DNA of 34,288 nucleotides. Source: a virus (taxonomy: Duplodnaviria > Caudoviricetes). The position numbers and the translations under genes were made by a program. Position 1 is the stretch's first letter. Every line of letters starts with the position of its first letter. Below the pieces are notes generated by a model. It did not search any database, was not told the DNA's origin, and saw only the letters and a program-made list of their open reading frames with translations. The DNA lies in the IMG/VR virus record IMGVR_UViG_3300032234_000434, positions 1 to 34,288 of that record; one strand, 5' to 3'. Positions 1-34,288 of this stretch are shown here, one piece after another.

Positions 1-1
1 A

Positions 2-610
2 ATGTGCTTTTCATCCGGAGATGGCGGGGCCGCAGCCCGTGCTCGTGCTGACGAGGACGCACGCCAGGCACGCATCAAGTCCGGAACGGAGAAGATTAAC
101 CAGACTTTCTCGCAGTTTGACGACAGTTTCTACCAGAAGCGTGCCGAAGACTTCAAGGCCTTCGCGGCCCCGGAGGCTGAACGTCAATACAAGGACGCCA
201 ACCGCGACCTGCTGTTTAATCTGGCTCGCTCTGGAAACCTGGCTTCGTCTGAACGTGCCAGACAGATGTCTGTCGTAGACCGAGAACGCGACATGGCGGC
301 CATGCGTATCGCAGACAAGGGTCAGGAATACGCCAACCAGGCCCGTCAACAGGTCGAGCAGAACCGCACGGACCTTATCAATCAGACGATGGCAAGCGGC
401 GACGACACCCTTGCCGCCAATCAGGCACGCCAGCGTGTTGGCATGCTTGGCACTTCTCCTGCCTTTGAGGGGCTTGGCTCCCTATTCGAGACTACTGGCG
501 GCATCATCAAGTCTACCCGTAACGTAGAAGCATACCAGCCTTGGGCTCCCGGTATGTCTGCCTTCACCAGCCCAGGCAAGTCATCCAGGATGGTAGGAGA
601 GAATAAGTAA
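2..610 (+). CDS. Putative internal virion (ejection/core) protein, 202 aa
   Basis: Met-Cys N-terminus with Gly-rich start, helical Ala/Gln/Arg-rich body, first of a tightly packed series leading to a giant protein; function inferred from position and composition. Confidence 0.5.
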   Translation: MCFSSGDGGAAARARADEDARQARIKSGTEKINQTFSQFDDSFYQKRAEDFKAFAAPEAERQYKDANRDLLFNLARSGNLASSERARQMSVVDRERDMAAMRIADKGQEYANQARQQVEQNRTDLINQTMASGDDTLAANQARQRVGMLGTSPAFEGLGSLFETTGGIIKSTRNVEAYQPWAPGMSAFTSPGKSSRMVGENK

Positions 611-611
611 C

Positions 612-1466
612 ATGTGCGAACTGATGACCAATCTGACGTACGCGGCCATGGCGGCCGGTACCGCTGCTAAATACGCCGCAGCCGAAAAGAGCTCGAAGGC
701 CATGACGGCAGTCCAGCGTCTTGAGGCAGAACGTCAGGACCGCCTAAACAAGGAAGCGGACGCCCTGCTTGCAGGAAGCACCGAGGAAAACACGCGTATG
801 AGCGTGGAAACTCAGCTCGAGGACAACAAGAACAAGCGTCTGACGGCCATGAACGCCGCAGTCGACGCAATCCCTGTGGGGGATGCGGTCAGCAGGCTTG
901 GTGAGTCGGGTCAAAACCGGCTCGTTCAGGCTGAGACGGCATCCAAGGCGGCGGAAGCCGATGCCGTCAACAAGAGCACCGGTAAAGCCATGGCTTCGAT
1001 GGGCTCCCTGTCTGACACCAACTTGAACCTTGGTATCAGTAACGCTCGAGGACTTCAAAACATCAGCAAAATCGGCAACTTCAAGCGTGGTTCCGGCCAG
1101 GTTGCCAACATCGAAAACGAAACGGCAAGCCGTGCTGGTGAAGGTCTGTCTCAGATTGGAGACATCCTAAATGCACTTGCCGTAGTGTCTGGCGGATACG
1201 CCGCACAGGGCACGACTCCGTGGATGTCTGCCACCGAAAAGGCAACCAACCTTGCCCAGGCTCAAAAGGTGTGGCTCGCTGAAGCCGCAAAGGCTGGCCT
1301 CCCTGCGGCGGCGACTGCCGCTGGTACGCCTACCGCACTTGTTGGTTCGTCTGCTGGTCAGGTCGGCAATCTTCTCGCTCAAGGTAGTGCATTTACCGGT
1401 GGCTTTGGCATGAATAGACGCAGGCCGCAGGCTTACAATCTCTACAATAACGGACAAATTACCTGA
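612..1466 (+). CDS. Putative internal virion protein (T7 gp14 / P22 gp7-like role), 284 aa
   Basis: Met-Cys start, Ala/Gly-rich N-terminus (AAMAAGTAAKYAAA), coiled-coil middle, Gly/Ala-rich C-terminus; 1 bp after the previous stop. Confidence 0.55.
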   Translation: MCELMTNLTYAAMAAGTAAKYAAAEKSSKAMTAVQRLEAERQDRLNKEADALLAGSTEENTRMSVETQLEDNKNKRLTAMNAAVDAIPVGDAVSRLGESGQNRLVQAETASKAAEADAVNKSTGKAMASMGSLSDTNLNLGISNARGLQNISKIGNFKRGSGQVANIENETASRAGEGLSQIGDILNALAVVSGGYAAQGTTPWMSATEKATNLAQAQKVWLAEAAKAGLPAAATAAGTPTALVGSSAGQVGNLLAQGSAFTGGFGMNRRRPQAYNLYNNGQIT

Positions 1467-1468
1467 CC

Positions 1469-2830
1469 ATGGCCACTACCAAGAACCCTTTTACCGCAGC
1501 CCTTGAAGGCTTCGCTGTCGACCCGGAAGCCCAGGCCAAGGGCCAGGTCTACCTTGGTCAGACGGCTAAGTTGAACAACGAGAATACCATCCTTGCGGAC
1601 CGCATCGCTGCTCGCAAGAAGATGCTTGATGACCCCCATACTCCGCCCCACATCCGGGCCATGCTGCTTGCGAACGACACCATCAACCCTCAGCAAGCAA
1701 CCGGAGCTACCCGCGAGTTCTTTGGAACTAATACCTTTTTCCCGGGTGGCAAGCCAGCTACCGGCTTGACCCCTGAAGCCCGTTCCGCGGGTCTTGCTGC
1801 GTTGGGTATCAACCCGAATGATAATCTTATTCATGGGCTTTCTGGACTGCCCGGTATTGCACCCTCCAATGCCACCGCCAAGGACCCGGAAGTCCACATG
1901 GTTGATGGCGTTCCTCATGTCTGGACCAACGTCCAAGGCAAAGATGCCAGCGGCAAGGTGGTCACAGACAGGCGTCTTATGCCAGCTCCTGGCGTGACTA
2001 CTCAGACGCTCGCCAAGCCAGTCGTGCCTGGCGACAAGCCTACGGTCGTCAACAAGAGGGTTGGCGAAGGCGGTAAAATCGAGGTTTCATACAACACCCC
2101 CGAGGTCAAGGGGGGTCAGGTCATTAGTGTTGCTGACCTGATGAGAATTACGGAAGAACGACGAAAGCAGGCTGTCACCCAACTTGGTACCGCTGCCATG
2201 AAGTACCCCTCCGGTCCGTACGCGTTCCTTCTGGACAGACAACTTGGACGCATCGACGAGGCTGGCAACGCAAGAGAGGGCGTGGCATCCCTCAATCCGC
2301 TTGAGGCCAACTCCATTATCAACCTTGCTACAGAGCTTGCAAACTCCGGTTACAACCCACTTGAGGCCTTTAACCTTTCGCTGGAAATGCACCCCAAGTT
2401 GAAGACTGCAATCCAAGCAGGAACGATGGCTACTGGAGACTTTGACAGGGGTTTTGCCTGGAACCCATTTAGCGGAACCGACACATACCAGTCTGGCGGC
2501 AAAACCATGAACTTCCCCCATTTTGGAGGAGACTTTGCTATGAGCCCTGGTTTTGTACCGAAGGAAACCGGAGACTACAGCAATCGTATTTCTGGCACCG
2601 TTCCGGTACCTTCAGACACGGTCATCGTGTCCCAGCCTGACCTTGCTTCTGCCGTGTCTGCTGGTGTCGCCATTCGTCCTCGTTTTGCTTCCCCCATCCC
2701 CTCAGACATGGCTTCGGCAAAAGAAGGCGACTACTACTACAGCGGAACCTCTGAGTCTCCACGTTTTGTCGTAGCCCGTCAGCAGGACGGTAAGGTAGTC
2801 CTTGTCCCTGTGACCGGCATCCAGCAGTAA
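1469..2830 (+). CDS. Putative internal virion/ejection protein, 453 aa
   Basis: Long ORF in the same operon between small MC-start proteins and the giant protein; no recognisable catalytic motif. Confidence 0.45.
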   Translation: MATTKNPFTAALEGFAVDPEAQAKGQVYLGQTAKLNNENTILADRIAARKKMLDDPHTPPHIRAMLLANDTINPQQATGATREFFGTNTFFPGGKPATGLTPEARSAGLAALGINPNDNLIHGLSGLPGIAPSNATAKDPEVHMVDGVPHVWTNVQGKDASGKVVTDRRLMPAPGVTTQTLAKPVVPGDKPTVVNKRVGEGGKIEVSYNTPEVKGGQVISVADLMRITEERRKQAVTQLGTAAMKYPSGPYAFLLDRQLGRIDEAGNAREGVASLNPLEANSIINLATELANSGYNPLEAFNLSLEMHPKLKTAIQAGTMATGDFDRGFAWNPFSGTDTYQSGGKTMNFPHFGGDFAMSPGFVPKETGDYSNRISGTVPVPSDTVIVSQPDLASAVSAGVAIRPRFASPIPSDMASAKEGDYYYSGTSESPRFVVARQQDGKVVLVPVTGIQQ

Positions 2831-2867
2831 GTCTCGACAGACGTGTCTGAAGCACTATCTGTCAGAC

Positions 2868-13492: not shown

Positions 13493-13502
13493 TGTTCAGA
13501 CA

Positions 13503-13637: not shown

Positions 13638-13640
13638 GTC

Positions 13641-15980: not shown

Positions 15981-15990
15981 GGGAAAAGCC

Positions 15991-16301: not shown

Positions 16302-16322
16302 TTTCCACCCACACCACACAAC

Positions 16323-16781
16323 ATGAAACTGAAGAAGAACACCGTCAAGGACCTCGCCGAGGCTTACAAGAGCATGAGCGTCGTCCGTCTGCGTGAGATG
16401 TACGCGATGGCCGTCGAGGACGTCAGCCGCAGCAAGAAGAACATGGACCTCATCAAGGCTGAACTGAGCAACCGGTTCACCAACGATGCGATGCTCGAAA
16501 TCGCATCCCGAGGCAAGGAGCACGGCGAGTGCACCATCGAGCAGGATGGCGTCAAGGTCATCTGCGAAATCGGACAGAAGGTCACTTGGGACACCGAGAA
16601 ACTCAAGGCCATCGCCGCCACCCTCCCGGCCGAAACCGTCCAGCGTCTCATGAAGGTCACCATCACGGTGCCCGAACGCGTGTATCACAGCGTCACGGAA
16701 AAAGACCTCCTTGACAAACTGACGGACGCACGCACGGTGCGTATCGACGAACCCAAGTTCTCGTTCCCTGCCTCCGAGTGA
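16323..16781 (+). CDS. Phage recombination-module hypothetical protein, 152 aa
   Basis: Strong codon bias, coiled-coil N-terminus, KVTWD and ARTV motifs; directly upstream of the Sak4-like ATPase. Confidence 0.6.
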   Translation: MKLKKNTVKDLAEAYKSMSVVRLREMYAMAVEDVSRSKKNMDLIKAELSNRFTNDAMLEIASRGKEHGECTIEQDGVKVICEIGQKVTWDTEKLKAIAATLPAETVQRLMKVTITVPERVYHSVTEKDLLDKLTDARTVRIDEPKFSFPASE

Positions 16782-16809
16782 GGCAGGTTCCTTTCCCATC
16801 CACACACAC

Positions 16810-17697: not shown

Positions 17698-17718
17698 AAA
17701 CCAAAACCCAAGAACATC

Positions 17719-18270
17719 ATGTTCACCAGCAAAGACTCCGCAGGCCAGTCCATCGGCCTCATCCCGGACAAGACCGCCAGCAAGGCGGTCGTCAACGTCC
17801 GCGGCATCAAGAACAGCGACAAGACCGGCAGCCGGTACCTCGACGTCGAGTTCACGCTCGTCGGCGGTGAGTTCAACGGCCGCAAGGTCTGGTCCATCAT
17901 CATGGACCCGACGTTCGACGGCAACACCCCCGAAGCCAAGAGCCTCGGTAAGAAGTTCATCGTCCGCATGCTCGAGGCCGCTGGCCTCGTGACCGTGGGC
18001 GACGAGGCTTCCTACGGTCGCTTCCCCACCCTGCAGGACGTGGTCAACGCCCTCAACGGCCAGACCGTCGCCATCAAGGTCGGCATCAAGAAGGGCGACC
18101 AAGGCTACGCGGACAAGAACACGGTGAGCGACTACTACTCGCCCAACCCGGAGAGCGGCTATGCCGAACGCTTCAAGCAGGTCATGTCCGGCTCCGCCGG
18201 TTCGTCTGCTCCGACGCTCGGTGGTAAGCCCAGCTTCCTGAGCACGCCGAAGGGGAACAACCCCTTCTAA
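17719..18270 (+). CDS. Putative single-stranded DNA-binding protein (DUF669-like), 183 aa
   Basis: OB-fold-like YLDVEFTLVGGEFNGRKVW, flexible tail ending NNPF; follows the Sak4-like gene. Confidence 0.7.
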   Translation: MFTSKDSAGQSIGLIPDKTASKAVVNVRGIKNSDKTGSRYLDVEFTLVGGEFNGRKVWSIIMDPTFDGNTPEAKSLGKKFIVRMLEAAGLVTVGDEASYGRFPTLQDVVNALNGQTVAIKVGIKKGDQGYADKNTVSDYYSPNPESGYAERFKQVMSGSAGSSAPTLGGKPSFLSTPKGNNPF

Positions 18271-18438: not shown

Positions 18439-18441
18439 CAA

Positions 18442-20079: not shown

Positions 20080-20086
20080 CCAAGTC

Positions 20087-21344: not shown

Positions 21345-23629
21345 TGACCCCCCATTTCCAATCGGTCAGCGACCACCTCGGTCTGCTGTTCAGGACACCC
21401 TTCGCCGCAGGCGAATGGCTATGTCTGCGTGGCATCGGCGAGAAGGGCACGGAGCGTGAGGGCGTGTTCGCCGAGAACATCCTCATCCAGCCCGCCGTCG
21501 ATTGTCCGAGCAACCTCGCACAGGTCGTGTATCAGCACGTCCTGCGGTGGAACTCCCACGGCATCGGTGCGTTCGTCGTCCCGGCCGTGCTGTCCCAGCC
21601 GGAGGCCACCTCCTCGAACGTCATCCGCTTCGACACCGTCTGTTGCGACATTGATAGCGGCAACCCTTGGGGTGCCGTGGACTACATCCGCAAGGCAGGC
21701 ATGGAGCCGACCATGGTGGTCGCATCCGGCGGTCAGACGGAGCAGGGCAAGGACAAGTTGCACGTCTACTTCGGCCTGTCCAGACGCCCCGGTGAAACCG
21801 CCGAGGTGGTCAACATCCGTGACGAACTCGCCGCCAAGGTAGGAGGCGACCCTCAGTTCGGCAAGGGCGTCGAGTCCAACCCCTACGGTCGGGCTCACCA
21901 GCCCATCCGTCTGGCCGGTTCGGTCCACGGCAAGAACGGCAAGATGACCCTCGTTGAAATCCGCGAGCACAACATCGACTACGGCTACCACCCGGAGCAT
22001 GTGTCTGACGTAGTCAGACAGATGGCACCGATGCCCGGCCAGGCGATGGAACGCAAGAAGGGGCCCTCTGCGGAAACGCAGCAGGGCGAGTTTCGGGCTC
22101 TGAACCTAAGCGAAGAAGTCCGTGAAGGCGGCGACGGAGACATGACCAGATGGTCGCAGTTCTCCCGGGTCGCAGGCATGTTCATCACCTCCGTCAGACG
22201 AGGCGAACTCACCGAGCAGGAGGCACTCGAGCGGACCATCGGATGGATGGACGCCAAGATGCTCCCGCCTTGGCCGCTTCCACGGGCCATCAAGGAGTTC
22301 AACGCCATCCTGCGTAAGGACCTGCACTCCCACGGCCCCATGCCGGAGCCCGAGAAGCCCATCGTCCCGGACGAAGGACAGGGCCTGCTGGCATGGGCGG
22401 CACACCGCTGGAGCCACGGCACCCCACCTAAGCGTAAGTTCCTCGTCGATAAGGTAGTCCTCGCAGGCAAGCACCAGATGCTCGTCGCCGAAGGCGGTGC
22501 CGGTAAGACCTTCCTCATGCTGGACCTCGCACTCAAGGTCGCTGCGACCCAAGCCTGCGGCCCTCAGACATGGTGTGGCCACAAGGTGCTGCAAGGTGGC
22601 ACCGCGGTCATCATCACCACCGAGGACGACCAAGAGGAACTGCACATCCGCCTGACGGAAATCGACCCGGACGGCATGCGGTTCGCCGCCGCAGACAACC
22701 TTGTCATCCTGCCCCTCATCAACTCCGGCGGCTCGTTCGCCCTCGTGGACAAGGACCCCAAGACGCAGGAGTCCCGCCCGTCGAAAAAGTGGATGGAGCT
22801 CATGGGCCACCTCAGACAGCTGAAGGACCTGCGTCTGGTGGTCGTGGACACCCTCAACTCCGTCATGCACGGAGAGGAGAACTCGGCCACGGTCATCAAC
22901 GAGTTCATCCGTGTCGCCTCGCAGGTCTGCGGGGAACTCGGCTCGGCCCTCATCATCACCCACCACGTCCGCAAGCAGGGCGACGAACCCATCCGCAACA
23001 CGGAGGACATGAAGTCCGCCGTCCGTGGCTCGTCCGCGTTGCCCGCAGCGTTCCGTTCCGTCATCGGCATCTGGCATGCGTCTGACTACGAGCGTCGCAT
23101 GACGGCCATGAAACTCAGCCCCAAGCGTGGGATGCTGTGGAAGTTGGCCATCATCAAGGCGAACAACCCGGAGATGCTGGACAGCGAACTGACCCTGCTG
23201 AGGCAGCCGTCCGGCCTGCTGACGGACGTGACCAAGGACGACCTGTTCAACTCCATCAACATGGGCGAGCGTGAGGCTTGGCTCATCTTCGCCATCCGGC
23301 ACGCCGCCGAGCGAGGCCACCCCTACTCCATCGAAGGCAAGAACGCCAAGTCAGGCGTGTATCGCCGACGCTCGGAACTCCCGCTGGTGCTCAGACAGAC
23401 GGGTGCCCATGAGTTCGAGTCGCTCGTCAGCAGGCTCATGATGAAGGAAGTGGTCGTAGCCTGTGCGGCCAAGGGAACCAAGGACAAGAAGTGGCTCGAC
23501 ATTCCGACCGGCAACTATGCCACGGACTCGGACGGTGCCGAACTCTCGTCCGGTGCCTACCTCGACGTCCCGAATTGGGATAACTTCTCCTACGACAATA
23601 ACACCAAACGCATCATCCAGACCAAATGA
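21344..23629 (+). CDS. AEP (RepB'-like) primase fused to AAA_25/RepA-like SF4 helicase, about 761 aa
   Basis: CCDID, SGG...KLHVYF, PIRLAGS in the N-terminal part; AEGGAGKT, VVVDTL, THHVRK, RGSSAL in the C-terminal part; TAATG overlap at 21342-21346. Confidence 0.88.
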   Translation: MTPHFQSVSDHLGLLFRTPFAAGEWLCLRGIGEKGTEREGVFAENILIQPAVDCPSNLAQVVYQHVLRWNSHGIGAFVVPAVLSQPEATSSNVIRFDTVCCDIDSGNPWGAVDYIRKAGMEPTMVVASGGQTEQGKDKLHVYFGLSRRPGETAEVVNIRDELAAKVGGDPQFGKGVESNPYGRAHQPIRLAGSVHGKNGKMTLVEIREHNIDYGYHPEHVSDVVRQMAPMPGQAMERKKGPSAETQQGEFRALNLSEEVREGGDGDMTRWSQFSRVAGMFITSVRRGELTEQEALERTIGWMDAKMLPPWPLPRAIKEFNAILRKDLHSHGPMPEPEKPIVPDEGQGLLAWAAHRWSHGTPPKRKFLVDKVVLAGKHQMLVAEGGAGKTFLMLDLALKVAATQACGPQTWCGHKVLQGGTAVIITTEDDQEELHIRLTEIDPDGMRFAAADNLVILPLINSGGSFALVDKDPKTQESRPSKKWMELMGHLRQLKDLRLVVVDTLNSVMHGEENSATVINEFIRVASQVCGELGSALIITHHVRKQGDEPIRNTEDMKSAVRGSSALPAAFRSVIGIWHASDYERRMTAMKLSPKRGMLWKLAIIKANNPEMLDSELTLLRQPSGLLTDVTKDDLFNSINMGEREAWLIFAIRHAAERGHPYSIEGKNAKSGVYRRRSELPLVLRQTGAHEFESLVSRLMMKEVVVACAAKGTKDKKWLDIPTGNYATDSDGAELSSGAYLDVPNWDNFSYDNNTKRIIQTK

Positions 23630-24462: not shown

Positions 24463-24656
24463 TACACGAGTTCCGCAACCCCATGCCGGTCGAGACGCCT
24501 ATCGGCTACGGCATGTTGGTCTATGTCCGTGACGGCGGCACGTTCTCCAACGACGTGTTCGCCATCGTGCTGGACAAGGACGGCGTGCTCAGGCACTTCA
24601 CCTCGGACCAATTCAAGTTCGTCCGCAACGACACCTTCGGGGTGAGGTCCGAATGA
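24459..24656 (+). CDS. Hypothetical small beta-rich phage protein, 65 aa
   Basis: GTG 24459 overlaps the previous TGA; MIHEFRNPMPVETPIGYG... Confidence 0.65.
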   Translation: MIHEFRNPMPVETPIGYGMLVYVRDGGTFSNDVFAIVLDKDGVLRHFTSDQFKFVRNDTFGVRSE

Positions 24657-25069: not shown

Positions 25070-25087
25070 CCGCTTGACAGTCTGGAA

Positions 25088-25125
25088 TGATTTAATTACG
25101 TTACGTACGTAACGTAATTAAATCA
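25088..25125. repeat. Perfect 38-bp AT-rich palindrome
   Basis: TGATTTAATTACGTTACGTACGTAACGTAATTAAATCA equals its own reverse complement. Confidence 0.97.
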
Positions 25126-25178
25126 CTTTTGGTGTTAATAGTGTTTCTGTCTGAGCCGGTTGTCTGACAGACATCTCA

Positions 25179-25516
25179 GACACTAAGTCTTGCGTAGATT
25201 ATTAAAGTTTTGTATCCCGACACTAAGTCGTTCACAGACGAGGACGTTGGGCGTGTCCTTGTGAATGACTCTGAGGACGCCAGACACGCAAGTGGTTGTA
25301 TTACAACAACTTGTCTGCGTCCTGTGAATAGCGTCCTCAAACGGTTTTTGGAAATCTGTAAGTCGTTGATTTCACGCTACTTAATTTTGAGGACGCGAGT
25401 CCTAATAATAGAATGGTGTCCTCATGGGCACACCCATGCTTCGCAGGTGTGCCACCAGACACTACATCCTATGTAGCGAACCCCGACACTAAGTCTTGCT
25501 TTTCCGACACTAAGTC
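25179..25516. repeat. Repeat-rich non-coding control locus: 4x GACACTAAGTC plus about 8 AGGAC-core repeats
   Basis: GACACTAAGTC at 25179, 25219, 25485, 25506; TGAGGACGC at 25272 and 25388, inverted at 25331; related copies at 25239, 25253, 25317, 25397, 25416. Confidence 0.85.
25359..25371. promoter_or_regulatory. IHF consensus-like binding site
   Basis: TAAGTCGTTGATT matches YAANNNNTTGATW (reverse complement of WATCAANNNNTTR); a related site lies at 25289-25313. Confidence 0.55.
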
Positions 25517-25530
25517 TTTCGTATGTCCCC

Positions 25531-26172
25531 GTGCAAAACGCAGCCGCAAACGCAGACGCCGGTCAGACCGGCAGACAGCCAGACATCCGCAGACATCCGG
25601 GCATCACGGTCATCGCCGTCGGCACGCCCAGACCGCAACCCAGACCGAGGTTCGCTGCTGGCCGGGTCATCAGCACAGCAGACAAGAACGCTCGTCTGTG
25701 GATTTCGTCGGTCGAGCGAGCCTGCAAGCAGGCACTCGAAATCACGGGAGGCAAGCAAGCCCTGCCCGGTCTGCTCGGGACAGACGCCCTGTCTGTCAAG
25801 ATGCAGTTCCGCTTCTCGTTCCAGAAGGTCGCAGGCCGGAAGCCGAAGCGTGGCAGACAGACAGGGTCGCCCCATGTCTCCAGACCTGACACGGACAACC
25901 TCGCCAAACTCATCCTCGATTGTCTGACCAGACAGGGCGTCATCGCAGACGACTGCCTCGTCTCGTCGCTCACCGTGGACAAGGTCTGGTCCGACCTCGA
26001 GCACGCCGGAGTCACCGTCTGGGTCCAGCCCTACGAGCCTGCGTTCCAGCCCTCTGGCTGGACCGAGAGGCAGGGCTACCCCTGCGACCCGAGCCCGGAG
26101 CCTCCCGCATGGCTGAACGAGGCTCTGAGGGCCAGCGAGCAGGCCAAAAAAAAGGGCCAGCCCGGAGGCTGA
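25531..26172 (+). CDS. rusA: RusA-like Holliday junction resolvase
   Basis: GTPRPQPRPRF, SRPDTDNLAKLILDCL, VIADD; start position uncertain. Confidence 0.85.
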   Translation: MQNAAANADAGQTGRQPDIRRHPGITVIAVGTPRPQPRPRFAAGRVISTADKNARLWISSVERACKQALEITGGKQALPGLLGTDALSVKMQFRFSFQKVAGRKPKRGRQTGSPHVSRPDTDNLAKLILDCLTRQGVIADDCLVSSLTVDKVWSDLEHAGVTVWVQPYEPAFQPSGWTERQGYPCDPSPEPPAWLNEALRASEQAKKKGQPGG

Positions 26173-26178
26173 CCCTTT
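26146..26178 (-). terminator. Intrinsic terminator for the leftward arm, possibly bidirectional
   Basis: Minus strand GGGTCAGCC-TCCG-GGCTGGCCC-T8 at the convergence of rusA and the leftward operon. Confidence 0.8.
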
Positions 26179-26190
26179 GAACGACCACGC

Positions 26191-26295
26191 TCAGAGGCGT
26201 GGCATGATTGCCTTGCTTAGGCAGGCCGACAGCACCAGCCCCAACAGGATGGCGTTGAGCAGGACGAAGAAGGCGTAGACCCAGACGCCCTTCAT
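26191..26295 (-). CDS. Small hydrophobic membrane peptide, 34 aa
   Basis: MKGVWVYAFFVLLNAILLGLVLSACLSKAIMPRL; ATGA overlap with the upstream stop. Confidence 0.55.
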   Translation of the reverse strand: MKGVWVYAFFVLLNAILLGLVLSACLSKAIMPRL

Positions 26296-26894
26296 GTCTG
26301 GGCCCCGCCCTTGCCAGCGTCCTCCTCCGTGATGAGCATGACCTCGGGCTCGATGGCCTCGAACAGGTCCTTGCTGACGCCCATGCCCGGCTTGCACGAA
26401 CGGCGTGCACCCCAGACGACCTTGTCCGAAGTGTTGGCCACAGACAAGGCGTGCGGCGTCATCGACCTCGGCTTGATGGTCGGCAGTTGCCACCACAGAC
26501 GCTTGAGCAGTTCGAGGACGGCGTCCTTGGCCTCCGGCGTCTGGCATCCGTCCGCAGTCCGAACATCCACGCAGACCATGAAGCGGACCTGCGTGCACAG
26601 ATACTTCCGGGAGCCGTGACCCTTGCGGTTGGACAGGAAGTTCGGCAGGACCCAGACAGACAGGATTTCCAGACGGTCACCGTCAACGCGGTCCCTGATG
26701 ACGAGGTTGTCCGGGTCCGTGACTTCGTCCTCGAACGCCTCCAACTGCTCGTCCGGGAACAGGAGGATGGGCTTGCTTTGCTTGGCCGAAGCCCAGACGC
26801 AGACGGACAGCGTCTGCTCAGCCTTGCCCTCCTTGAGTTTGCGGACCCGGGACTCCTTGTCCGGCGGGTTGGTCGCCTCTTGTCCGTCGCTCAC
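26292..26894 (-). CDS. Hypothetical protein, 200 aa
   Basis: GTG 26894 overlaps the upstream TGA (GTGA); globular composition. Confidence 0.65.
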   Translation of the reverse strand: MSDGQEATNPPDKESRVRKLKEGKAEQTLSVCVWASAKQSKPILLFPDEQLEAFEDEVTDPDNLVIRDRVDGDRLEILSVWVLPNFLSNRKGHGSRKYLCTQVRFMVCVDVRTADGCQTPEAKDAVLELLKRLWWQLPTIKPRSMTPHALSVANTSDKVVWGARRSCKPGMGVSKDLFEAIEPEVMLITEEDAGKGGAQT

Positions 26895-27295
26895 GACGCA
26901 CCTCCCACATTCTTGCGGACCTCGCAGACGGTCCACGGTTCGGCATCGAGGTCCCACGAGCGTCCGAACTCGTCCTCGACGGACAGGTCGAAGGACAGGA
27001 CGCCGGGGTCTGTGTTGGCCGGGTCAGACAGGATGCTGGCCAGGCGGTCTGCGACCTTGTCCTCGCAGGTGAACACCCACTCGCTCACGAACTTGAACAC
27101 GGTGCGTTCGCCGTCCGTGGACAGCGAGTAGGAGTCGCACGAGACGGACGACAGACAGACACCGTCCTTGCGGACGATGGGATGACGGTCATCGAACTCG
27201 CCGAACTCCAGCGGGTCGATGGGCACTTCGTCCGGGAGGGACACGCCCTCCACGGAGAAGGCGAGGGTGACCCTCGCCACGATGACGGCAGACAT
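26891..27295 (-). CDS. Hypothetical acidic protein, 134 aa
   Basis: TAATG overlap at 27297-27293; MSAVIVARV... Confidence 0.65.
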   Translation of the reverse strand: MSAVIVARVTLAFSVEGVSLPDEVPIDPLEFGEFDDRHPIVRKDGVCLSSVSCDSYSLSTDGERTVFKFVSEWVFTCEDKVADRLASILSDPANTDPGVLSFDLSVEDEFGRSWDLDAEPWTVCEVRKNVGGAS

Positions 27296-27756
27296 TAGGC
27301 CACCTCCTTTCCTTTGCGGCGAGCCCACGCCGCCTTGGCCGACTTGGACCGCTTGGCCTTGGACCAGCGACGAGCCCGGGCCTTGGCGAGGACCTCGTCA
27401 GACCGTCCGGCAGACCTGTCCGGCTTGCGGGACTCGATGACCTCGTGGACCTTGGTCGCCGAGTCGTGCAGACAGGCGATGGCCTCGACGACGAGGGCGA
27501 TGCGGTGCGTCTCCGGCGTCAGACCAGCCGGGACGGCGTGGGTCTGTCCGAACAGGGACGACAGCAGGTCGCCGCACTTGTGCAGGGCCTTGACCGTCTG
27601 GTTGTTCGCCTCCTCGAGCGTGACGAGGTCACGCTTCACCGCCTGCCGGATGCCGGAGGCCGTGGTGAGGTGCGAGAGGGACAGGCGGGGCCTGCCTCGG
27701 TTGTTCTGCGTCGCCGGGGTGGCTTCGCTCTTGTTGGTGTTGTGCTTGTGCAGCAT
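27295..27756 (-). CDS. Hypothetical basic, possibly DNA-binding protein, 153 aa
   Basis: RGRPR AT-hook-like motif; C-terminal KARARRWSKAKRSKSAKAAWARRK; C/A-rich leader before ATG 27756. Confidence 0.6.
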   Translation of the reverse strand: MLHKHNTNKSEATPATQNNRGRPRLSLSHLTTASGIRQAVKRDLVTLEEANNQTVKALHKCGDLLSSLFGQTHAVPAGLTPETHRIALVVEAIACLHDSATKVHEVIESRKPDRSAGRSDEVLAKARARRWSKAKRSKSAKAAWARRKGKEVA

Positions 27757-27845
27757 GGGTGAAGGTGGTTTGTCTGACGGCCTCGTCAGCGGGAGCATAA
27801 CTCCACGGACACCAGACGGCCATGACTCCGTCTGATGTTTCGGCC

Positions 27846-28394
27846 TTAGTTGAACCGATGCTTGTCCGGGTCGAAGCCGTCCAAGCGGTCGTGCGGGTCG
27901 AAGTTCTTGTCCTTGTAGCCGGGCTTCTTGTCTGCGGACTTCTTCTTGTTGAACGGACCCTTGGGGTCCTCGACGAAGCCGTTGCCCTCGGCCTCCTCGA
28001 AGAAGGACTTGAGGAAATCCTCGCCGGACAACTTGAAGTCGTCGATGAGGTTCTCAGACACGCTCGTCACCGGGATGCCACGCTCCTCACACTTGCGGGT
28101 GATGTATTCGTCGTGACGGACGATGGTCTGACCGAGGGTGCAGACAGCCTTGCCGAGCAGGTTGAGGCCCTGCCGGATTTGGTCTGCGTGGACCTTGGCG
28201 TCTGCCGTCTGTCCGGCGTCGAGGGCCTTCACCAACTTGGACAGGTCGTCCTTGATGGCGGCGGCGGTCACGGCCCCGATGAGCGTGCCCTTGCTGATGA
28301 AGCCGAGGAAGTTGAGCAGGTCCTGCGGGCTCGTGGCGATGGCGTGCTCGGGCGGGGTGCCGTTGCTGGGGTTCTTGTCGTTGTTGTTCGTCAT
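27846..28394 (-). CDS. Hypothetical protein, 182 aa
   Basis: ORF with consistent codon bias and a C/A-rich leader. Confidence 0.7.
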   Translation of the reverse strand: MTNNNDKNPSNGTPPEHAIATSPQDLLNFLGFISKGTLIGAVTAAAIKDDLSKLVKALDAGQTADAKVHADQIRQGLNLLGKAVCTLGQTIVRHDEYITRKCEERGIPVTSVSENLIDDFKLSGEDFLKSFFEEAEGNGFVEDPKGPFNKKKSADKKPGYKDKNFDPHDRLDGFDPDKHRFN

Positions 28395-28438
28395 GTTCGT
28401 ATTATTTTCTGGGTGGGTATTCTGGGTGGGTGAAAAGG

Positions 28439-28765
28439 TTATCGGTTCGAGGCGAACCAGACAGACAGGTCGATGAGGGTTTCGGCGTTGTAGCGTTCGA
28501 GGGGGAAGGCGTGCTTGTCCTTACGCTTGCTGTCCGTGTAGGCGGTCCGGCACAGGCTCGCCAGAAGCGGGATGGTGACCGGGTGTCCGGCGTCCGTGAA
28601 CGCCTTGACGCACTTGTTGGCGAGGTCGGCGAAGGGGTCGTCCGTGGCCAGCACCCGGTTGAAGGGGGCGGGGTCCTTTTCCTTGTCTCGCAGTTCGATG
28701 TAAGCCTCGAGCACCGTCTTGAGGACAGCGTCGAGGGCCTTGAGTTTGTTGGAGGTTTTGCTCAT
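28439..28765 (-). CDS. Hypothetical protein, 108 aa
   Basis: ATG 28765 lies just downstream of a predicted promoter. Confidence 0.65.
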   Translation of the reverse strand: MSKTSNKLKALDAVLKTVLEAYIELRDKEKDPAPFNRVLATDDPFADLANKCVKAFTDAGHPVTIPLLASLCRTAYTDSKRKDKHAFPLERYNAETLIDLSVWFASNR

Positions 28766-28773
28766 CGGTGGGA

Positions 28774-28816
28774 AGTATTGCTGGGTTGTTTGATTTGTCA
28801 AGCGACAGTTTGTCGG
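28774..28816 (-). promoter_or_regulatory. Leftward promoter with adjacent palindromic operator
   Basis: TTGACA (28801-28796)-N16-AATACT; CGACA-GTT-TGTCG at 28803-28815. Confidence 0.6.
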
Positions 28817-29245
28817 TTAGTATTCGCTGGGCAGGAGGACGGTCGTGACGATGCCCTCGTCCGTGGACTCGGTCGTGACCCACACGGACTCGGACGAGTC
28901 GGGCAGACGCCACGAGGCGAGCACACGGCCCGGGTTGCGGACGGCACAGGGCTCGAAGTCCTTGCCATACGCAGACGGCAGACGCTCGAAGCGTTCGATG
29001 TTGCCCGGGTCGTCGTTCGACTGCCAATCGCCAGCCGGGATGGCGTTGCCCCAATCGCAACACGAGTGGGCGGTCAGCAGTTCAGACACGGTGTCGAGCG
29101 TCTGCTCGTTGAAGCGGTCCTGCACGCCGTTCGTGATGACGATGCGGCCGGTGTTGAACAGCGGGATGAACTCAGACGAGAGCAGGTGCTGGTGCAGGTG
29201 CTCCCGGATGAGGGTGGCGGTGGGGGTGGGTTCGTTGGTGCTCAT
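28817..29245 (-). CDS. Uncharacterised mobile-element-type protein (DWG...TxLLPxEY pattern), 142 aa
   Basis: GRIVITNGV...H..CDWG...VWVTTE...TTVLLPSEY pattern recalled from plasmid/ICE/phage hypothetical proteins. Confidence 0.7.
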   Translation of the reverse strand: MSTNEPTPTATLIREHLHQHLLSSEFIPLFNTGRIVITNGVQDRFNEQTLDTVSELLTAHSCCDWGNAIPAGDWQSNDDPGNIERFERLPSAYGKDFEPCAVRNPGRVLASWRLPDSSESVWVTTESTDEGIVTTVLLPSEY

Positions 29246-29288
29246 GTTCGTATGTGTGTGGAGGTGTGTCTGGGGGTGAGTGGGTGGG

Positions 29289-29648
29289 TTAGGCGTTCGG
29301 GCGGTAGGCGGTGTCGTCCGGGATGCTCACCTTGGATTTGAGCGAGCCGAGGACAGACAGACCGAGGTAGGCAGACAGGAGAAAACCACGGGCGTCAGCA
29401 CAGCGAGGGTCAACCTGCTCGTAGTCGTAGACGGACAGGTAGAAGTCTGCGTCCTTGAGCGTGTCCCGGGCGGCTTGAGCCTGCGAGATGGCCGAGTCGA
29501 GTTTGACCCGGAGAGCCTCGAGGTTTTCGAGCGAGTCAACGGCGGCGTTCAAGCCGACACGGACTCGGTTGGCGAGGCGGTCGTGAGTCGCCTTGTTGGT
29601 GGACTCCCACAGGTTGTCCGTGGGCTTGTTTTCATTGGGCTGGGTCAT
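29289..29648 (-). CDS. Hypothetical helical protein, 119 aa
   Basis: ATG 29648 follows a C/A-rich leader and a promoter; the upstream part of the 280-aa track ORF overlaps another gene. Confidence 0.65.
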   Translation of the reverse strand: MTQPNENKPTDNLWESTNKATHDRLANRVRVGLNAAVDSLENLEALRVKLDSAISQAQAARDTLKDADFYLSVYDYEQVDPRCADARGFLLSAYLGLSVLGSLKSKVSIPDDTAYRPNA

Positions 29649-29673
29649 GTTCTGGGTGGGTTGGAGATTGGGC

Positions 29674-29701
29674 ACTATGCCGACAGTTTGTAGGTTGTCA
29701 A
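29674..29701 (-). promoter_or_regulatory. Leftward promoter with operator in the spacer
   Basis: TTGACA (29701-29696)-N16-CATAGT; CCGACA-GTT-TGTAGG at 29680-29694. Confidence 0.65.
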
Positions 29702-29707
29702 GCGGGT

Positions 29708-30379
29708 TCAGAAAGTCCACGGCTGTTCGACGCCGGGCAACAGGCCAAGCGTGAAGGTGATGCGGTGCTTGCGTCCGGTCGGGACCGTGATGCGGACGAC
29801 CGCACGACCGGGGGCCTCCGGGCAGACGCCGAAGCCCAAGTAGGTGGCGTGGGCTCGGACGAACTTGCGGTTCACCAGACAGAGGATGCGGTCTTGCAGA
29901 CAGCGGTCTGCGATGTCCTCGCTGTTCACCTTGCCGATGCGGGTGCAGACGGTCACGCCGTCGTGTATGTCCGTCCGCACAGGCGGCTGGCCGGGCTCGC
30001 CGGGCACGCAATACGCAGACGCAAAGTGCTGTCTGAGGATGACACCTTCCCAGCCGAGCGAACGCACGCCGGTCTTGCACCGGGTGAGCACGACAGACAG
30101 CAGGACCTCGTGGCGTGCACGAGTGATACAATGGTCTTGGATGTTGTCCGTCTGTCTGCTCGAGGCTCCGTGGTGCGGCTTCACGCCGTCGTGGTCGAGC
30201 GAGATGCCACGGACAGGCGGCAGGTAGTCACGGATGCCCACGGTCAGCGGGTGCGTGATGCGTGCGTAAAGCGGACGGATGACGCCGTTCAGACCGAGGC
30301 ACTCCGGCTTGGTCGTGTCCGGGTCTGCGGCCAGCCACTTGTTGCTGTCCGAGGAGAATGGGTTGTATGTCTTGGTCAT
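29708..30379 (-). CDS. Hypothetical protein, 223 aa
   Basis: Long ORF in the leftward arm; no recognisable motif. Confidence 0.6.
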   Translation of the reverse strand: MTKTYNPFSSDSNKWLAADPDTTKPECLGLNGVIRPLYARITHPLTVGIRDYLPPVRGISLDHDGVKPHHGASSRQTDNIQDHCITRARHEVLLSVVLTRCKTGVRSLGWEGVILRQHFASAYCVPGEPGQPPVRTDIHDGVTVCTRIGKVNSEDIADRCLQDRILCLVNRKFVRAHATYLGFGVCPEAPGRAVVRITVPTGRKHRITFTLGLLPGVEQPWTF

Positions 30380-30393
30380 GGTCGTCTGTCTGA

Positions 30394-30648
30394 TTAGGAG
30401 AGGAGGAGGTCGAGTTGCGTCTGCAGGTCGTCGAGTTTGACGCTGGCGTCGTTCCAGCGGAGCGTCACATCACGCAGACGGATGTTGCTCCGGCTCAGAC
30501 GCTCGAGGTCGGGCTCGGGCTTGGCGAGCAGGTCCGAGTGGTGCTGGGATGCGATGGCGTAGTCACGCTCGCACTCGGTCACACGCTCCCGGGCCAAGTC
30601 GATGGCGTCGATGAGCGAGCGGATGAGTTGTTTGGTTTCGTTGGTCAT
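30394..30648 (-). CDS. Hypothetical helical-hairpin protein, 84 aa
   Basis: ATG 30648 follows a C/A-rich leader. Confidence 0.65.
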   Translation of the reverse strand: MTNETKQLIRSLIDAIDLARERVTECERDYAIASQHHSDLLAKPEPDLERLSRSNIRLRDVTLRWNDASVKLDDLQTQLDLLLS

Positions 30649-30755
30649 GGTGTGTCTGTTGGGTTTGGGTGAGAGTGTCTGAGTGCTTGCGTCTGGACTC
30701 GTCAGCGTGGGCCTTACCCACGGACGCCTCACGGCGTTTCGTCCTGTCTGTCTGC

Positions 30756-31697
30756 TCAGTTGAACTTGAGCAGGAACCCGGCCTTGGTGAACACGGCAGA
30801 CAGCGTCTCGAGGCTGGCCTGCGGCGTGCTGTGCCGTCCGTGGGCGGCGAGGGGCAGGTAGATGCTCCCGGCCTCGAGCCCTTCCGTGGGGCCGTAGCAG
30901 GTGCCACCGTAGCCGCCCAGCAGACCGTCCACGCTACCACTCGGCGTCTGCACAGACCAGAGGCACTCACGCCCGGCGAAGAAGCCTCGGCGGAAGGCCG
31001 CCGGGTGAGCCAGCCAGACAGCGAGGTTGTTGAGGTCGAGCGAGGCTCCGGCGTGCTTCACCTTCACTCGCTGACAGACAGCCTCGGGGGCAGACTTGCT
31101 CGCAGACTCGGCCCAGACCTCGCATTGGTAGCCAGCGGCCTCGATGCTACGGATGCAGGCCACGACCGCCGCACCTCGGTTGTAGAGGTAGTCCGCATCG
31201 TATCCGGCGAGGGCACCGACCGGGACAATCAGACGGATGACCTTGGTCTGTCCGAGGCTTGCGTCCTCGTCCGGGTCGCAGTCCCAATGGCAGGGGTCGC
31301 CAGCCACGAACGCCGGGATGTTGAGCGAGTCACCGCATACATCCGAGTCCGGGATGCGTCCGAAGCCGATGGACGAGGGCAGGGCGGCAACGGCGGTCTT
31401 GAGTTTGGCCACGCCTTTCGGCCAGCCGTCAGACACCAGCGTCTGATAGCCGTCCCATCCGGCCTTGAGGTCCCACGACTGCTTGGCAGACGCAGACCGG
31501 GACTCACGCCAGCCGCTGACAGACGGCTCGCACTCGGCCTGCCACTTGAGGTAGGTGTCGATGCTGTCTGCCTCGAGCAGAACATAGTTCTTGCTGCGGT
31601 CTGCGTTGCTGAAGTCGGACTTCAGACAGACGCCGGGGGTTTGGTAGTAACGCTTCTCCTTGTGGCGGGGAAGCGGGGTGTTGTCGATGAGGGCCAT
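30756..31697 (-). CDS. Degenerate vWA-like partner of the MoxR-type AAA+ ATPase, 313 aa
   Basis: Directly downstream of the AAA+ gene; GDP.HW, RGAAVVACIRSIEAAGYQCEVWA, VKVK, HPAAFRR; no canonical DxSxS MIDAS seen. Confidence 0.55.
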   Translation of the reverse strand: MALIDNTPLPRHKEKRYYQTPGVCLKSDFSNADRSKNYVLLEADSIDTYLKWQAECEPSVSGWRESRSASAKQSWDLKAGWDGYQTLVSDGWPKGVAKLKTAVAALPSSIGFGRIPDSDVCGDSLNIPAFVAGDPCHWDCDPDEDASLGQTKVIRLIVPVGALAGYDADYLYNRGAAVVACIRSIEAAGYQCEVWAESASKSAPEAVCQRVKVKHAGASLDLNNLAVWLAHPAAFRRGFFAGRECLWSVQTPSGSVDGLLGGYGGTCYGPTEGLEAGSIYLPLAAHGRHSTPQASLETLSAVFTKAGFLLKFN

Positions 31698-31781
31698 GTG
31701 TGTTGTGTGTGTTTGGGTGGGTGAGAGGGTGCAGGGGCCTGCCCGCCGTTCGTCCGGCGAGCAGGCTTGTCTGCGGTTGGG

Positions 31782-33449
31782 TTAGGCGGTCGGCTGGGCG
31801 GGGTTGCGGCGAGCGTTGACAGCGGCCTCGCCGAACTTGGCCAGACGCTTGCGGGCCTCGGGGTCAGACACCTTCTTGAGGATGAAGCAGTCGAGCAGGT
31901 CCTTGCACTTGCGGAACTGCTTGCCCCCGGCGGCCAACACCCGGACGCCGAAGAAGGCGGCACGAGGGCTGAGCACGAGGTCGATGCTGTTCGCACGAGC
32001 CGCCAGACGGTAGTCCCGGACGGTGGCAACCCACTCGAGGGCTTCATCGAGGACGGCCCCGGTCAGACCGTAGGACCGGACCACGCTGTCCGTGAGGGCG
32101 TCATCGTAGTCGCACTCGAGGACGGCGAAGCGGTCGAGCGAAGCGGCGTCCAACTTGTTGCGTCCGCTGTATTGGGCCGTAGCACCGCCGCCGTTCGTGT
32201 TCGCCGAGGCGATGAAGCGGAAGCGGGGGTGGGCCTTGACGGTGCGGTCCGGGAAGTCGCAGATGCCGTTCGCCAAGGCGGCGTTGAGCACCAGCAGGAC
32301 CTGCGGGTTGGAGGCGTCGATTTCATCGAACAGGAACAGACCGCCATGCTCGAAAGCCTGTCGGAATGGCGTGGTCTGATACTCGCCCCGGGCGTCCTTG
32401 TAGCCGAGGACCTTGAAGTCCTTCTGGACGGCCCCGGCGATGTAGCAGTCCAGACCGAGCGTCTGAGCCACCGTCTGAGCCAGCGTGGTCTTGCCGGAAC
32501 CAGCCGGGCCGAACACGAACACCCCGAAGCCGCCGGGAGTCAGCAGGTCCACGCATTCGTCATGCAGGGCGTGCTTGCGGATGTTCGAGGGCACCTTCAC
32601 AGGCTTGGGCAGGGGCTCGGGCAGGCCGCTGGGGGTAGGCGTCTGGGCCTTGGGCGTCTGCGGCGTCTGAGCCTGCTTGGGCTCGGGCTGGCCGGAGGGC
32701 GTCTGGGGCTGGTTCGCACCGTTCGTCTGAGGGCTGGTCTGACCGCCCTGCTGAGCGAGCAGGTCCCGGAGCGTCTGGTCGGTCGTGTCATTGTAGGCCG
32801 CAGACAGTTCGGACACGGACAGTTTGCCAGCACCCTTGCACGCACCTTCCGGGTTGTAGGCCACGCCCTTGCGGGTCAGCCACTTGCGGACGGCACCCCG
32901 GTTGTCCGAGGTCACCTTGGTCTGGCCACGAGGGCCGATTTGGGCCTCGAGGTCGCTGGCGTCCGGGAGGGCCTGCTGGGGCTCGCTGGTCTGGGCCTGC
33001 TGGGGCTCAGACGCACCGCTGGGGCTGGGCGTCTGGCCGGGCTCGCCTGCCTGCTGGCCGGGCTCGCTGGGCTCGCCGGGCGTCTGACCCGGTTCGCTGG
33101 GCGTCTGACCCGGTTCGCCGGACGAGCCGGACTGAGGGTCGGACGCACCGCTGGGGGTCTGCGTCTGGGCGTTGGCCGTGGCGTTGGCGTTGGGCTCACC
33201 AGCGGACAGGCCGCTGGGGTTGCCCACTTGGCCGGGAGCCTGCCCGCCCTGCTCGGGCTGGCCGGACGAGCCGGGCTCGGAACCCGGGCTGGGCTCGTTG
33301 CCGAACCCGCCACGGCTGTTCTGGGCCGAGGGGGCGGTGGCCGTCTGGCTGGTCGAGCCGGACGAGGACAGCCCGGCGGTCTGCAGGGCGGTCTGGGTGA
33401 TGCCGATGACGAGGGTCGGCTGGGTGGCGTCGGGGGTGTTGTGGGTCAT
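31782..33449 (-). CDS. MoxR/CbbQ/CobS-like AAA+ ATPase (AAA_5) with long low-complexity N-terminus, about 555 aa
   Basis: GPAGSGKT, GGLFLFDEID, SANT, RNKLDAASLDRF; N-terminal P/Q/G/S/T/E-rich repeats; start placed at ATG 33449, downstream of the promoter. Confidence 0.88.
   Translation of the reverse strand: MTHNTPDATQPTLVIGITQTALQTAGLSSSGSTSQTATAPSAQNSRGGFGNEPSPGSEPGSSGQPEQGGQAPGQVGNPSGLSAGEPNANATANAQTQTPSGASDPQSGSSGEPGQTPSEPGQTPGEPSEPGQQAGEPGQTPSPSGASEPQQAQTSEPQQALPDASDLEAQIGPRGQTKVTSDNRGAVRKWLTRKGVAYNPEGACKGAGKLSVSELSAAYNDTTDQTLRDLLAQQGGQTSPQTNGANQPQTPSGQPEPKQAQTPQTPKAQTPTPSGLPEPLPKPVKVPSNIRKHALHDECVDLLTPGGFGVFVFGPAGSGKTTLAQTVAQTLGLDCYIAGAVQKDFKVLGYKDARGEYQTTPFRQAFEHGGLFLFDEIDASNPQVLLVLNAALANGICDFPDRTVKAHPRFRFIASANTNGGGATAQYSGRNKLDAASLDRFAVLECDYDDALTDSVVRSYGLTGAVLDEALEWVATVRDYRLAARANSIDLVLSPRAAFFGVRVLAAGGKQFRKCKDLLDCFILKKVSDPEARKRLAKFGEAAVNARRNPAQPTA
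33078..33118. repeat. 21-bp-period tandem duplication encoding EPGQTP units
   Basis: GGGCGTCTGACCCGGTTCGC at 33078-33097 and 33099-33118, within a wider degenerate repeat tract. Confidence 0.85.
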
Positions 33450-33474
33450 GGTTGGGTGCCGTTTGGCGATGACC

Positions 33475-33502
33475 ACCATGACGGCCACCGACAATGTGTC
33501 AA
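33475..33502 (-). promoter_or_regulatory. Leftward promoter for the AAA+/vWA operon with overlapping operator
   Basis: TTGACA (33502-33497)-N16-CATGGT; CCGACA-ATG-TGTC at 33488-33500 overlaps the -35 box. Confidence 0.6.
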
Positions 33503-33578
33503 CTCAATCCGACAAATTGGTGCCAAATCCGATGTTGCAAATGTCGGTCTGACCCTTGAAAACATTGGTCAAAACCCT

Positions 33579-34151
33579 ATGACAAAAAAAGTGTCTGGCT
33601 CTGGTCTGGTGGCTCGGTCTGGCGGTGTCCGAAACGGTGTCGGCGGTCGGTTCGTCTCAGCGGTGTCTGCCGACTGTTTGACTGAGCCCCAGACGCTGTT
33701 CGTGGCGGCCTATGTTCGCAACGGTGGATGCGTGGCGTCTGCCTGCCGGTCTGTCGGCCTGTCTGAGCACTCTGGTCCTCGTCTGCTCAGACTGCCCCAT
33801 GTCCGGGAGGCAATCCAGACGGCCCTCGACACCGGGTTGCGGACCGAGGGTGCGGCGTTGGCTTGGGGGTGCATCCGTGGGCTCATGCAGGACCCGGCCA
33901 CGCCTGCCAATGTCCGTCTGCAGGCCGCACGCTGGACGCTGGAGCACGCTGGCATGGGCTTGGCCGCACAGCAGACACGGCTGGGGCTACCTGCATGGAC
34001 AGGCCCACTTGCGGACATGGACGAGCACGCCCTGCAGGCGTTTGTGCAGGCTGGTGCGGATGCACTCGCCAGCCTGTCTGCGTCCGAGCACCTGCCTGCC
34101 TGTCTGCCTGTGGATGCCTGCCCGGATGTGCAGGTGCCCAAGCAGGCATGA
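33579..34151 (+). CDS. terS: Terminase small subunit, 190 aa
   Basis: LTEPQTLFVAAYVRNGGCVASACRSVGLS...RLLRLPHVREAI matches the TerS HTH pattern; true start at ATG 33579 within the 794-aa track ORF. Confidence 0.8.
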   Translation: MTKKVSGSGLVARSGGVRNGVGGRFVSAVSADCLTEPQTLFVAAYVRNGGCVASACRSVGLSEHSGPRLLRLPHVREAIQTALDTGLRTEGAALAWGCIRGLMQDPATPANVRLQAARWTLEHAGMGLAAQQTRLGLPAWTGPLADMDEHALQAFVQAGADALASLSASEHLPACLPVDACPDVQVPKQA

Positions 34152-34288
34152 GCAGGTGCGGGCCCGCCCAGCCGCAGGTGCACACGCCATGTGGGGGCGT
34201 GCACGCCGCACGCACCCCCGGGCACGCCCCCGCCCGCGACCGTCCGCGTACATCTCAGGTGCCCCGCGAAAAAATCTGGGGCTAAAAG

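Follow-up and report, generated by a model that had tools for sequence, protein, structure and literature searches.

The stretch of DNA analysed here (the window), positions 1 to 34,288 of the viral record IMGVR_UViG_3300032234_000434, is a 34-kb fragment from a temperate podophage clade with genomes of ~47 kb, and it is saturated with the pentamer CAGAC/GTCTG. We found support for this word being a DNA-level signal under selection, and among related phages it travels with a MoxR or 'CobS-like' AAA+ ATPase gene (31782..33449, minus strand, 555 aa) whose product is the candidate reader-motor. Within that protein lies a conserved four-helix N-terminal domain, here called type I (32745..32954, minus strand; aa ~166-235, ~70 residues), and from sequence comparisons we predict with good confidence that this N-domain binds CAGAC.

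The array numbers 351 sites over 1..34288, with a mean spacing of 97 bp, a median of 51 and a longest gap of 917, and is split 180/171 between CAGAC and GTCTG, i.e. without strand polarity. For the whole window 74 (order 0), 101 (order 1), 118 (order 2) or 246 (maximal-order) sites are expected, and the pair is the top 5-mer both by raw count (runner-up 214) and by Markov ranking. Across 36 genes, which were chosen by hand and include one open reading frame (ORF) in the wrong frame (28521-28766, containing no site), we counted 324 sites, against 144±8 under a synonymous shuffle (maximum 171 in 200 shuffles), 82 under a codon shuffle and 185 under a synonymous shuffle holding the next base (maximum 224 in 200); GTCTG and CAGAC took the first two ranks under each of the three nulls. 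All six phases are occupied in genes (66/51/38 and 28/57/84), rare codons are recruited (38 of 55 AGA codons lie within C-AGA-C, and 84 of 134 TCT codons within G-TCT-G), and the 3,823 bp of non-coding DNA hold 51 sites where 11.5 are expected. The shuffle nulls and the non-coding excess rule out codon or dicodon bias as the cause, as had been anticipated in a preliminary description of this DNA, which reported the word on both strands, in all codon frames and between genes. Its hand counts proved exact throughout (28 in 25141-26040, 30 in 30361-31680, 16 in 33541-34140, 11 in 8041-9000, 7 in 1-600 and 11 in 16321-18270), as did the three copies in the spacer 2831-2867.

The preferred extension is CAGAC(A/G), and T is avoided as the next base. 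While the saturation with the pentamer was described correctly, TCAGACA (52) is not its usual longer form, since CAGACAG (66) is commoner. Chains and inverted pairs had also been described together; overlapping chains (CAGACAGAC) alone stand out, and the inverted pairs at 25161..25173 (TGTCTG-A-CAGACA) and, inside the primase gene, at 22002..22020 (TGTCTGAC-GTA-GTCAGACA) are present but belong to a class with no preferred spacing. A LexA-type or yhcG-type CAGAC-N3/4-GTCTG operator was rejected, as no peak appeared over 1-40 bp in three genomes, where distances 8 and 9 had 4 pairs apiece. Sites are densest at 25141..26172 (plus strand), which comprises a control gap and the RusA gene (25531-26172, 31 sites/kb), and from RusA through the accessory arm to a terS-like gene (25400..34288) they reach 17.7 sites/kb within genes. 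This right arm uses 121 of 262 synonymous opportunities for the word, compared with 105/385 and 69/220 elsewhere (27-31%) and 81/909 and 69/961 in two motif-free relatives (7-9%), and its protein sequences are themselves bent toward CAGAC.

The word is retained where the amino acids leave it free to vanish. Between the window and its relative G001 (genomes and loci of the comparison carry G and L numbers), the word survives at 180 of the 207 sites where the amino acids are conserved, 139 being expected. The near-complete clade relatives G001-G004 (43-48 kb) each have 9.1-9.7 sites per kb, and distant clade members have 21-25% of sites in common at equal density, so that density stays constant despite turnover. 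At unshared sites the differences are spread across 13 of 15 single-base neighbours, and the deamination-type neighbours TAGAC, CAAAC and CAGAT are not singled out; selection on density therefore fits better than repair bias, and repair-driven conversion from one neighbour word, whose signature was not found, was rejected. A by-product of restriction-site avoidance was rejected as well, because the avoided sites vary among G001, G002 and G004 while the word persists, and because G012 and G013 bear the word without zero-count 4-mers. These results bear out the earlier suggestion of a selected DNA-level signal.

The signal most likely belongs to the phages. Among 89 loci chosen by capsid protein, CAGAC ranked first or second in 5 clade loci and first in the distant loci L066, L068 and L083, and the remaining words include CGGAC, AGACA or GGACA. 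Such sister words could be followed across three prophage borders: AGACA stands at 4.7/kb inside G036 versus 0.1 and 0.5 in the flanks, and at 6.2/kb inside G035 versus 1.5 and 0.8, and GGACA at 5.2/kb inside G037 versus 1.6 and 1.1, the word climbing at one border and dropping at the other. A host signal is unlikely on this evidence, which concerns sister words in three prophage hosts and not the window clade's own host. The Chi-like or HIP1/uptake-like host motif proposed earlier is not supported, as sister words lie at or below background in the flanks of all three hosts and CAGAC lacks polarity; CAGAC is also not palindromic as HIP1 is, and no methyltransferase family was matched among the window and complete-relative ORFs scanned, where unannotated ORFs remain. 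The same scan thus offers no enzyme for the DNA-modification target that was also suggested earlier.

When 47 window and G001 proteins were followed across 15 genomes, the ATPase and its neighbour, a DUF7192 gene (phrog_1909; 30756..31697, minus strand) directly behind it, alone separated motif-bearing from motif-free genomes. These are the co-occurring genes in related phages that the preliminary description had thought worth seeking. Replication genes are common to motif-free relatives and absent from several motif-bearing genomes, and primase, helicase, Sak4, integrase and a giant virion protein were all rejected as readers because none tracks the word. A primase recognition site, also suggested earlier, is not supported, given that the primase is common to motif-free relatives (46-54%) and was not found in G011/G012. 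A profile search of 40 genomes recovered the full ATPase in 8 (G005, G011, G012, G013, G035, G036, G037 and G041), all of which show a GAC-type word, weak in G005; G018 has the word, and the ATPase gene is absent from the half genome covered. A quick tree of capsid proteins requires the label to change 4 times, gene and word switching on the same branches, and with kin sharing labels these count as four events, not eleven. The ATPase was present in 3 of 401 sampled class-level genomes.

The ATPase (phrog_249, AAA_5) is the first gene of a leftward accessory operon. Its AAA+ domain (31806..32564, minus strand) scores 39.8 bits against Pfam AAA_5 and has the Walker A and B motifs GPAGSGKT and FDEID, and its closest solved folds, the top Foldseek matches, are NorQ and CbbQ (E 8e-13). 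The DUF7192 gene follows the ATPase in most loci, and its alignment pattern suggests a von Willebrand factor A (vWA)-like partner; its profile found no match among PDB sequences, and no nuclease domain was found in either protein. A cobaltochelatase of the CobS/CobT kind was rejected, since neither the 58 window ORFs nor the 10 complete-relative ORFs scanned include a cob gene; 'porphyrin biosynthesis' is a PHROG label.

In the predicted structure the N-domain is set off by two low-confidence linkers, and clustering of ATPase N-termini yielded two large groups, types I and II (G005, L187, L265 and G037 were given types by alignment). Type I goes with CAGAC, CGGAC, CCTGGAC, AGACC/TAGAC or GATTGAC, and type II with AGACA, GGACA, TGACA, CTGACT or GGGACC. 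The top word contained GAC in 14 of the 18 records of type I and 7 of the 9 of type II (21/27 together); the 25 ATPase-free relatives gave 0 such cases, and the 44 ATPases whose N-termini are of another kind gave 2. This tally used a three-periodic, frame-aware null with the best phase left out, a pass being a length-scaled z of at least 3.5; frame-aware scoring drops some raw-count words (GTTAAC in L183, GCTAGCA in L196 and ACACCTA in L214) and is thus conservative for palindromes. Loci picked prospectively by an N-domain peptide pattern alone showed CGGAC in 4 new loci, CAGAC in 1 and a weak AGACC/TAGAC in one, after exclusion of L258 and L260 (false matches without the ATPase), L257 (a duplicate of L170) and L263, L264 and L268 (in the window clade). 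Cultured phiM5, which matches the window in the ATPase alone, carries TGACA in every one of its 44 one-kb bins, and 349 times against 94 in its genes. The two types are dispersed over the ATPase-domain tree, type II falling on two clades only 21-25% alike that both have xGAC words; a search with the DUF7192 profile found no partner beside the distant one, leaving the N-domain as the common part. By these comparisons the word follows the N-domain rather than the ATPase tree, which supports the earlier idea that CAGAC is a site for a phage protein, with the AAA+ N-terminal domain as candidate.

ATPases with other N-termini come with other dispersed words, such as CTTTAAA (28 against 1, L178), GTTTAAA (31 against 1, L185) and CGCTAGC (26 against 1, L192), as well as GCACCCC, GTTAAC and ACAGCTG; CACGCAC in L169 was dropped as a local tandem repeat. 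The N-terminus of L196 matches Pfam SAP at 24.5 bits (cut-off 23.9), showing that the slot can hold a known DNA-binding module, and L183 and L205 match SAP or Rho_N below the cut-off. ACACCTA(AA) occurs 51 times against 2 in L214, over 17 of 18 kb and on both strands, beside a distant AAA+ gene. Cysteine-rich N-termini are seen with CCTAG/ATCCTAG in L270 (Tunturi_4) and with GCACCCC in L203, and similar-looking ones in Octobien14 and Snenia are without a strong word. By eye, the position after GV in the type I domain (region 32871-32880 of the window) is mostly aromatic in CAGAC phages (GVAY, EVPY, GVAF, GIPY, GMAY) and serine in CGGAC phages (GVPS, GVAS, GLPS), G012 being an exception; it is a possible specificity position.

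We propose that the N-domain would tether the MoxR-type AAA+ motor to phage DNA rather than host DNA. NorQ and CbbQ are hexameric motors that remodel proteins via a vWA partner, and in a hexamer, a state taken from that family, six weak readers on long linkers may sense site density and not single sites. Density sensing would explain selection on density in both orientations, and with avid binding where sites are dense, a 5-mer with a chance rate of ~2/kb could mark self at ten per kb. Because the ATPase gene heads its operon and adjoins the terS-like gene in the clade or, in phiM5, the terminal repeat, it is likely to be first both in entry and in expression. The motor and its DUF7192 partner might then pull candidate targets (host restriction, defence or silencing proteins) off tagged incoming DNA, and reader and word would shift together upon N-domain drift or swap. 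We chose this counter-defence reading because many restriction words are avoided in the clade, a sign of heavy defence pressure, and because a MoxR ATPase has an anti-defence role in phage Bas54; the report on that phage states that the ATPase is required against the defence system DS-28 (10.1101/2025.11.20.689424), and any kinship with the window family is putative. Given binding, we regard early entry and expression of the ATPase gene together with removal of host proteins from tagged DNA as marginally probable. The whole reading, in which a reader and a genome-wide self-tag tether a remodelling motor to phage DNA against host defence or silencing proteins, is tentative and stops a little short of probable.

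Several observations weigh against this proposal. The type I domain of the window matches no Pfam family and no solved fold (best structural Z 3.5), and types I and II fail to align with each other. The cut-off of 3.5 in the word tally was chosen after seeing the data. The tally also includes many related or nearly identical records, and for 18 of the 25 negatives the score comes from a locus of 13-21 kb, in some cases taken from an incomplete record. Six type I/II records miss (G005, L170, L174, P106B, L182 and L207), although in P106B, where the top word is CCTGGA, the top 7-mer is CCTGGAC. The partner's metal-ion-dependent adhesion site (MIDAS) motif is degenerate in the window and nearer DxSxS in phiM5. 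Site density rises clearly around the ATPase gene in G001 and G004 but is flat there in G011, G012 and phiM5. Snenia, Octobien14, LP-026, CS266P3, EW2 and G282 have the ATPase without a strong word in the stretches read, several of the cultured ones with N-termini of other kinds, which means that the motor is able to act without a tether or serves other purposes. Conversely, an ATPase-free subclade (G014, G029, L095-L119) is rich in CCAGG/CCGGC (551 against 225 in G029), a separate bias that is perhaps due to host methylation and repair, and ACAGGC(T) occurs 51 times against 13 in the 68%-complete G008 (L249-L250), with no ATPase in that part; word enrichment thus has other causes too. Finally, L265 is CAGAC-rich and has a different replication module, and its type I N-domain gene (L265:9881-10420) is cut off before the ATPase domain. 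We read this retention of the word beside a truncated ATPase gene as recent loss.

Other functions for a bound word were considered. The SAP/HeH-type domains are chromatin-organising modules, and their occurrence in the same slot, along with the placing of the densest sites in control regions, would suit a housekeeping role, in which a nucleoid-like coat compacts, positions or segregates the phage genome or activates its transcription. This is a minor possibility, since few sites lie in the gap upstream of the ATPase gene itself in G002, G004 and G012, no fixed spacing or operator geometry is seen, and the patchy distribution among kin suits an accessory conflict gene. A part in DNA entry is unlikely as well. 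An early-made protein could bind sites as DNA enters and ratchet or pull in the rest of the genome, and its gene, terminal on the phiM5 genome and a neighbour of the terS-like gene in the clade, would be well placed for it, with sites that serve equally in both orientations, span the whole genome and leave no gap above 917 bp; against this, close relatives with the same virion module are without gene and word, L265 retains the word despite its truncated ATPase gene, and the closest folds are protein remodellers, not DNA translocases.

The N-domain might also be a bystander, if the word is in truth read or made by another companion of the ATPase, be it the DUF7192 partner, a modifier that escaped recognition or a bias in repair. 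The partner lies behind the ATPase in most loci, a 3,418-aa virion protein and many small genes are without annotation, and the AAA-free relatives show words arising by other routes, but the spread of differences over 13 of 15 neighbours with TAGAC, CAAAC and CAGAT not singled out, and the tracking of the N-domain and not the ATPase tree, make this improbable. We consider it quite improbable that the word acts in packaging or superinfection, as a tag that separates the phage's own DNA from host, satellite or competitor DNA so that untagged DNA is excluded or attacked. The terS-like gene is the divergent neighbour, most carriers have an integrase or are prophages, and a MoxR-vWA pair has been proposed for virion assembly in jumbo phages (PMC7824862); yet neither protein has a recognised nuclease domain, transcription of the ATPase gene heads away from the virion genes, and the phiM5 record does not mark the ATPase as a particle protein. 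Lambdoid phages copy the Chi of their hosts, but the chance that CAGAC is likewise borrowed from a host, as a signal of the Chi, uptake or HIP1 kind, is very small indeed. Phages over-representing host Chi are described (PMC3784561), and with no close prophage found the clade's own host genome lies outside the comparison; however, the flanks of three hosts show sister words no more often than background, strand polarity is lacking, the word varies among phages with a phage gene, and the phage has its own Sak4-like recombinase.

The proposed tethered motor has likenesses to several known systems. It resembles NorQ-NorD and CbbQ-CbbO in its AAA+ fold and in the partner gene directly behind it in the window, and differs from them by a variable N-domain, carried on a long linker and changing in step with a genome-wide word, and by the degenerate partner MIDAS. 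HIP1 of cyanobacteria and DNA uptake sequences are likewise iterated genome-wide, bending codon and amino-acid choice, whereas the window word is confined to the phage genome, is of 5-7 bp and is tied to an ATPase domain, not to a methyltransferase or competence protein. McrB, with an N-terminal DNA reader on an AAA+ ring, and ParB/parS both place a reader on an NTP-driven module that a sequence signal loads onto DNA; here no McrC-like nuclease or ParA partner was found, sites are everywhere and not at one centromere, and the tagged DNA is the phage's own. Chi with RecBCD, and the Chi-rich lambdoid phages, offer a short non-palindromic selected word that is plausibly a self mark (PMC3784561). 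Unlike Chi, the window word has a predicted phage-encoded reader, is unpolarised, is far denser at ~10/kb and varies among phages, its sister words standing at background in host flanks. Viral MoxR-vWA ('CobS/CobT-like', phrog_249) pairs are described and proposed as assembly chaperones, and the accessible sections of that source yielded no description of DNA targeting for them or for NorQ-NorD and CbbQ-CbbO (PMC7824862). Bas54 gp63 is a phage MoxR ATPase with a tested role against DS-28, and the accessible part of its report mentions no DNA word (10.1101/2025.11.20.689424); no Escherichia phages are among the top groups listed for the window ATPase family.

In a literature search that was thin on subscription papers, we found no report linking such an ATPase or domain to an iterated genome word. 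The parts are known. We found no description of a phage that encodes a swappable reader and saturates its genome with that reader's site, and this is likely new. More tentatively still, phages may share a widespread but overlooked self-recognition code, in which interchangeable readers sit on a MoxR motor and genomes, and even proteins, are rewritten to hold a word of 5-7 bases every ~100 bp, the motor then acting on tagged DNA alone and freeing it of host immune proteins. On that reading the many phage 'CobS/porphyrin biosynthesis' genes would be DNA-targeted counter-defence machines forming a natural library of reader-word pairs. The results connect a strong and previously unexplained sequence bias of whole genomes with a single domain of a phage protein. 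They also offer a function that can be tested for a common gene pair of phages, which carries the label of a vitamin-B12 auxiliary metabolic gene. If the proposal is true, phages own a counterpart of Chi-type self marking with a virus-encoded reader swapped among lineages. The domain/word pairs would be a set of very small sequence readers with sites legible from genomes. Cultured phiM5 of Sinorhizobium meliloti carries the system, making it testable now. In phiM5 the ATPase gene adjoins the terminal repeat, and within that gene, in a different frame, is ORF 65 (L231:42460-42657), whose annotation places it in the particle proteome.

Besides the features above, the window encodes internal virion genes, lysis genes, an integrase, Sak4, a helicase, a Cas4-like exonuclease, a primase-helicase and RusA; on its right side the leftward accessory arm, with the AAA+ gene at its head, is followed by the terS-like gene (33579..34151, plus strand, 26 sites/kb). 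A family search with the latter gave no match, and the name reflects its position ahead of the tail-fibre and TerL genes in complete relatives. It divergently adjoins the ATPase gene in G001, G002, G004, G012 and G013, and the divergent gap (33450..33578) likely holds an early promoter. A variable tail-fibre-like gene lies between the terS-like gene and TerL across the clade (G001:27161-29683). Capsid relatives occur in a few bacterial genomes (42-60% identity), and no close prophage was among the 9 bacterial genome loci reached through them. In the control gap ahead of RusA, a long perfect palindrome (25088-25127) is centred on ACGTTACGTACGTAACGT (25098) and is an operator or origin candidate; GACACTAAGTC has four direct copies in the gap (25179, 25219, 25485 and 25506), iteron- or operator-like in arrangement, with 3 in G001 and none in G002 or G004. 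The 3,418-aa virion-module protein (2868-13124) has no Pfam or PHROG match; a search of 1.8 billion representatives with its first 1,200 aa turned up a single relative, and its C-terminal part alone is common to relatives. Restriction sites are strongly avoided in the window, where GATC, CTAG, GAATC/GATTC, GCCGGC, TTCGAA, GAGACC and CTCTTC have a count of 0 and GCGC of 1, and G002 and G004 avoid different restriction words, namely CCGG, CGCG, AGCT and ACGT.

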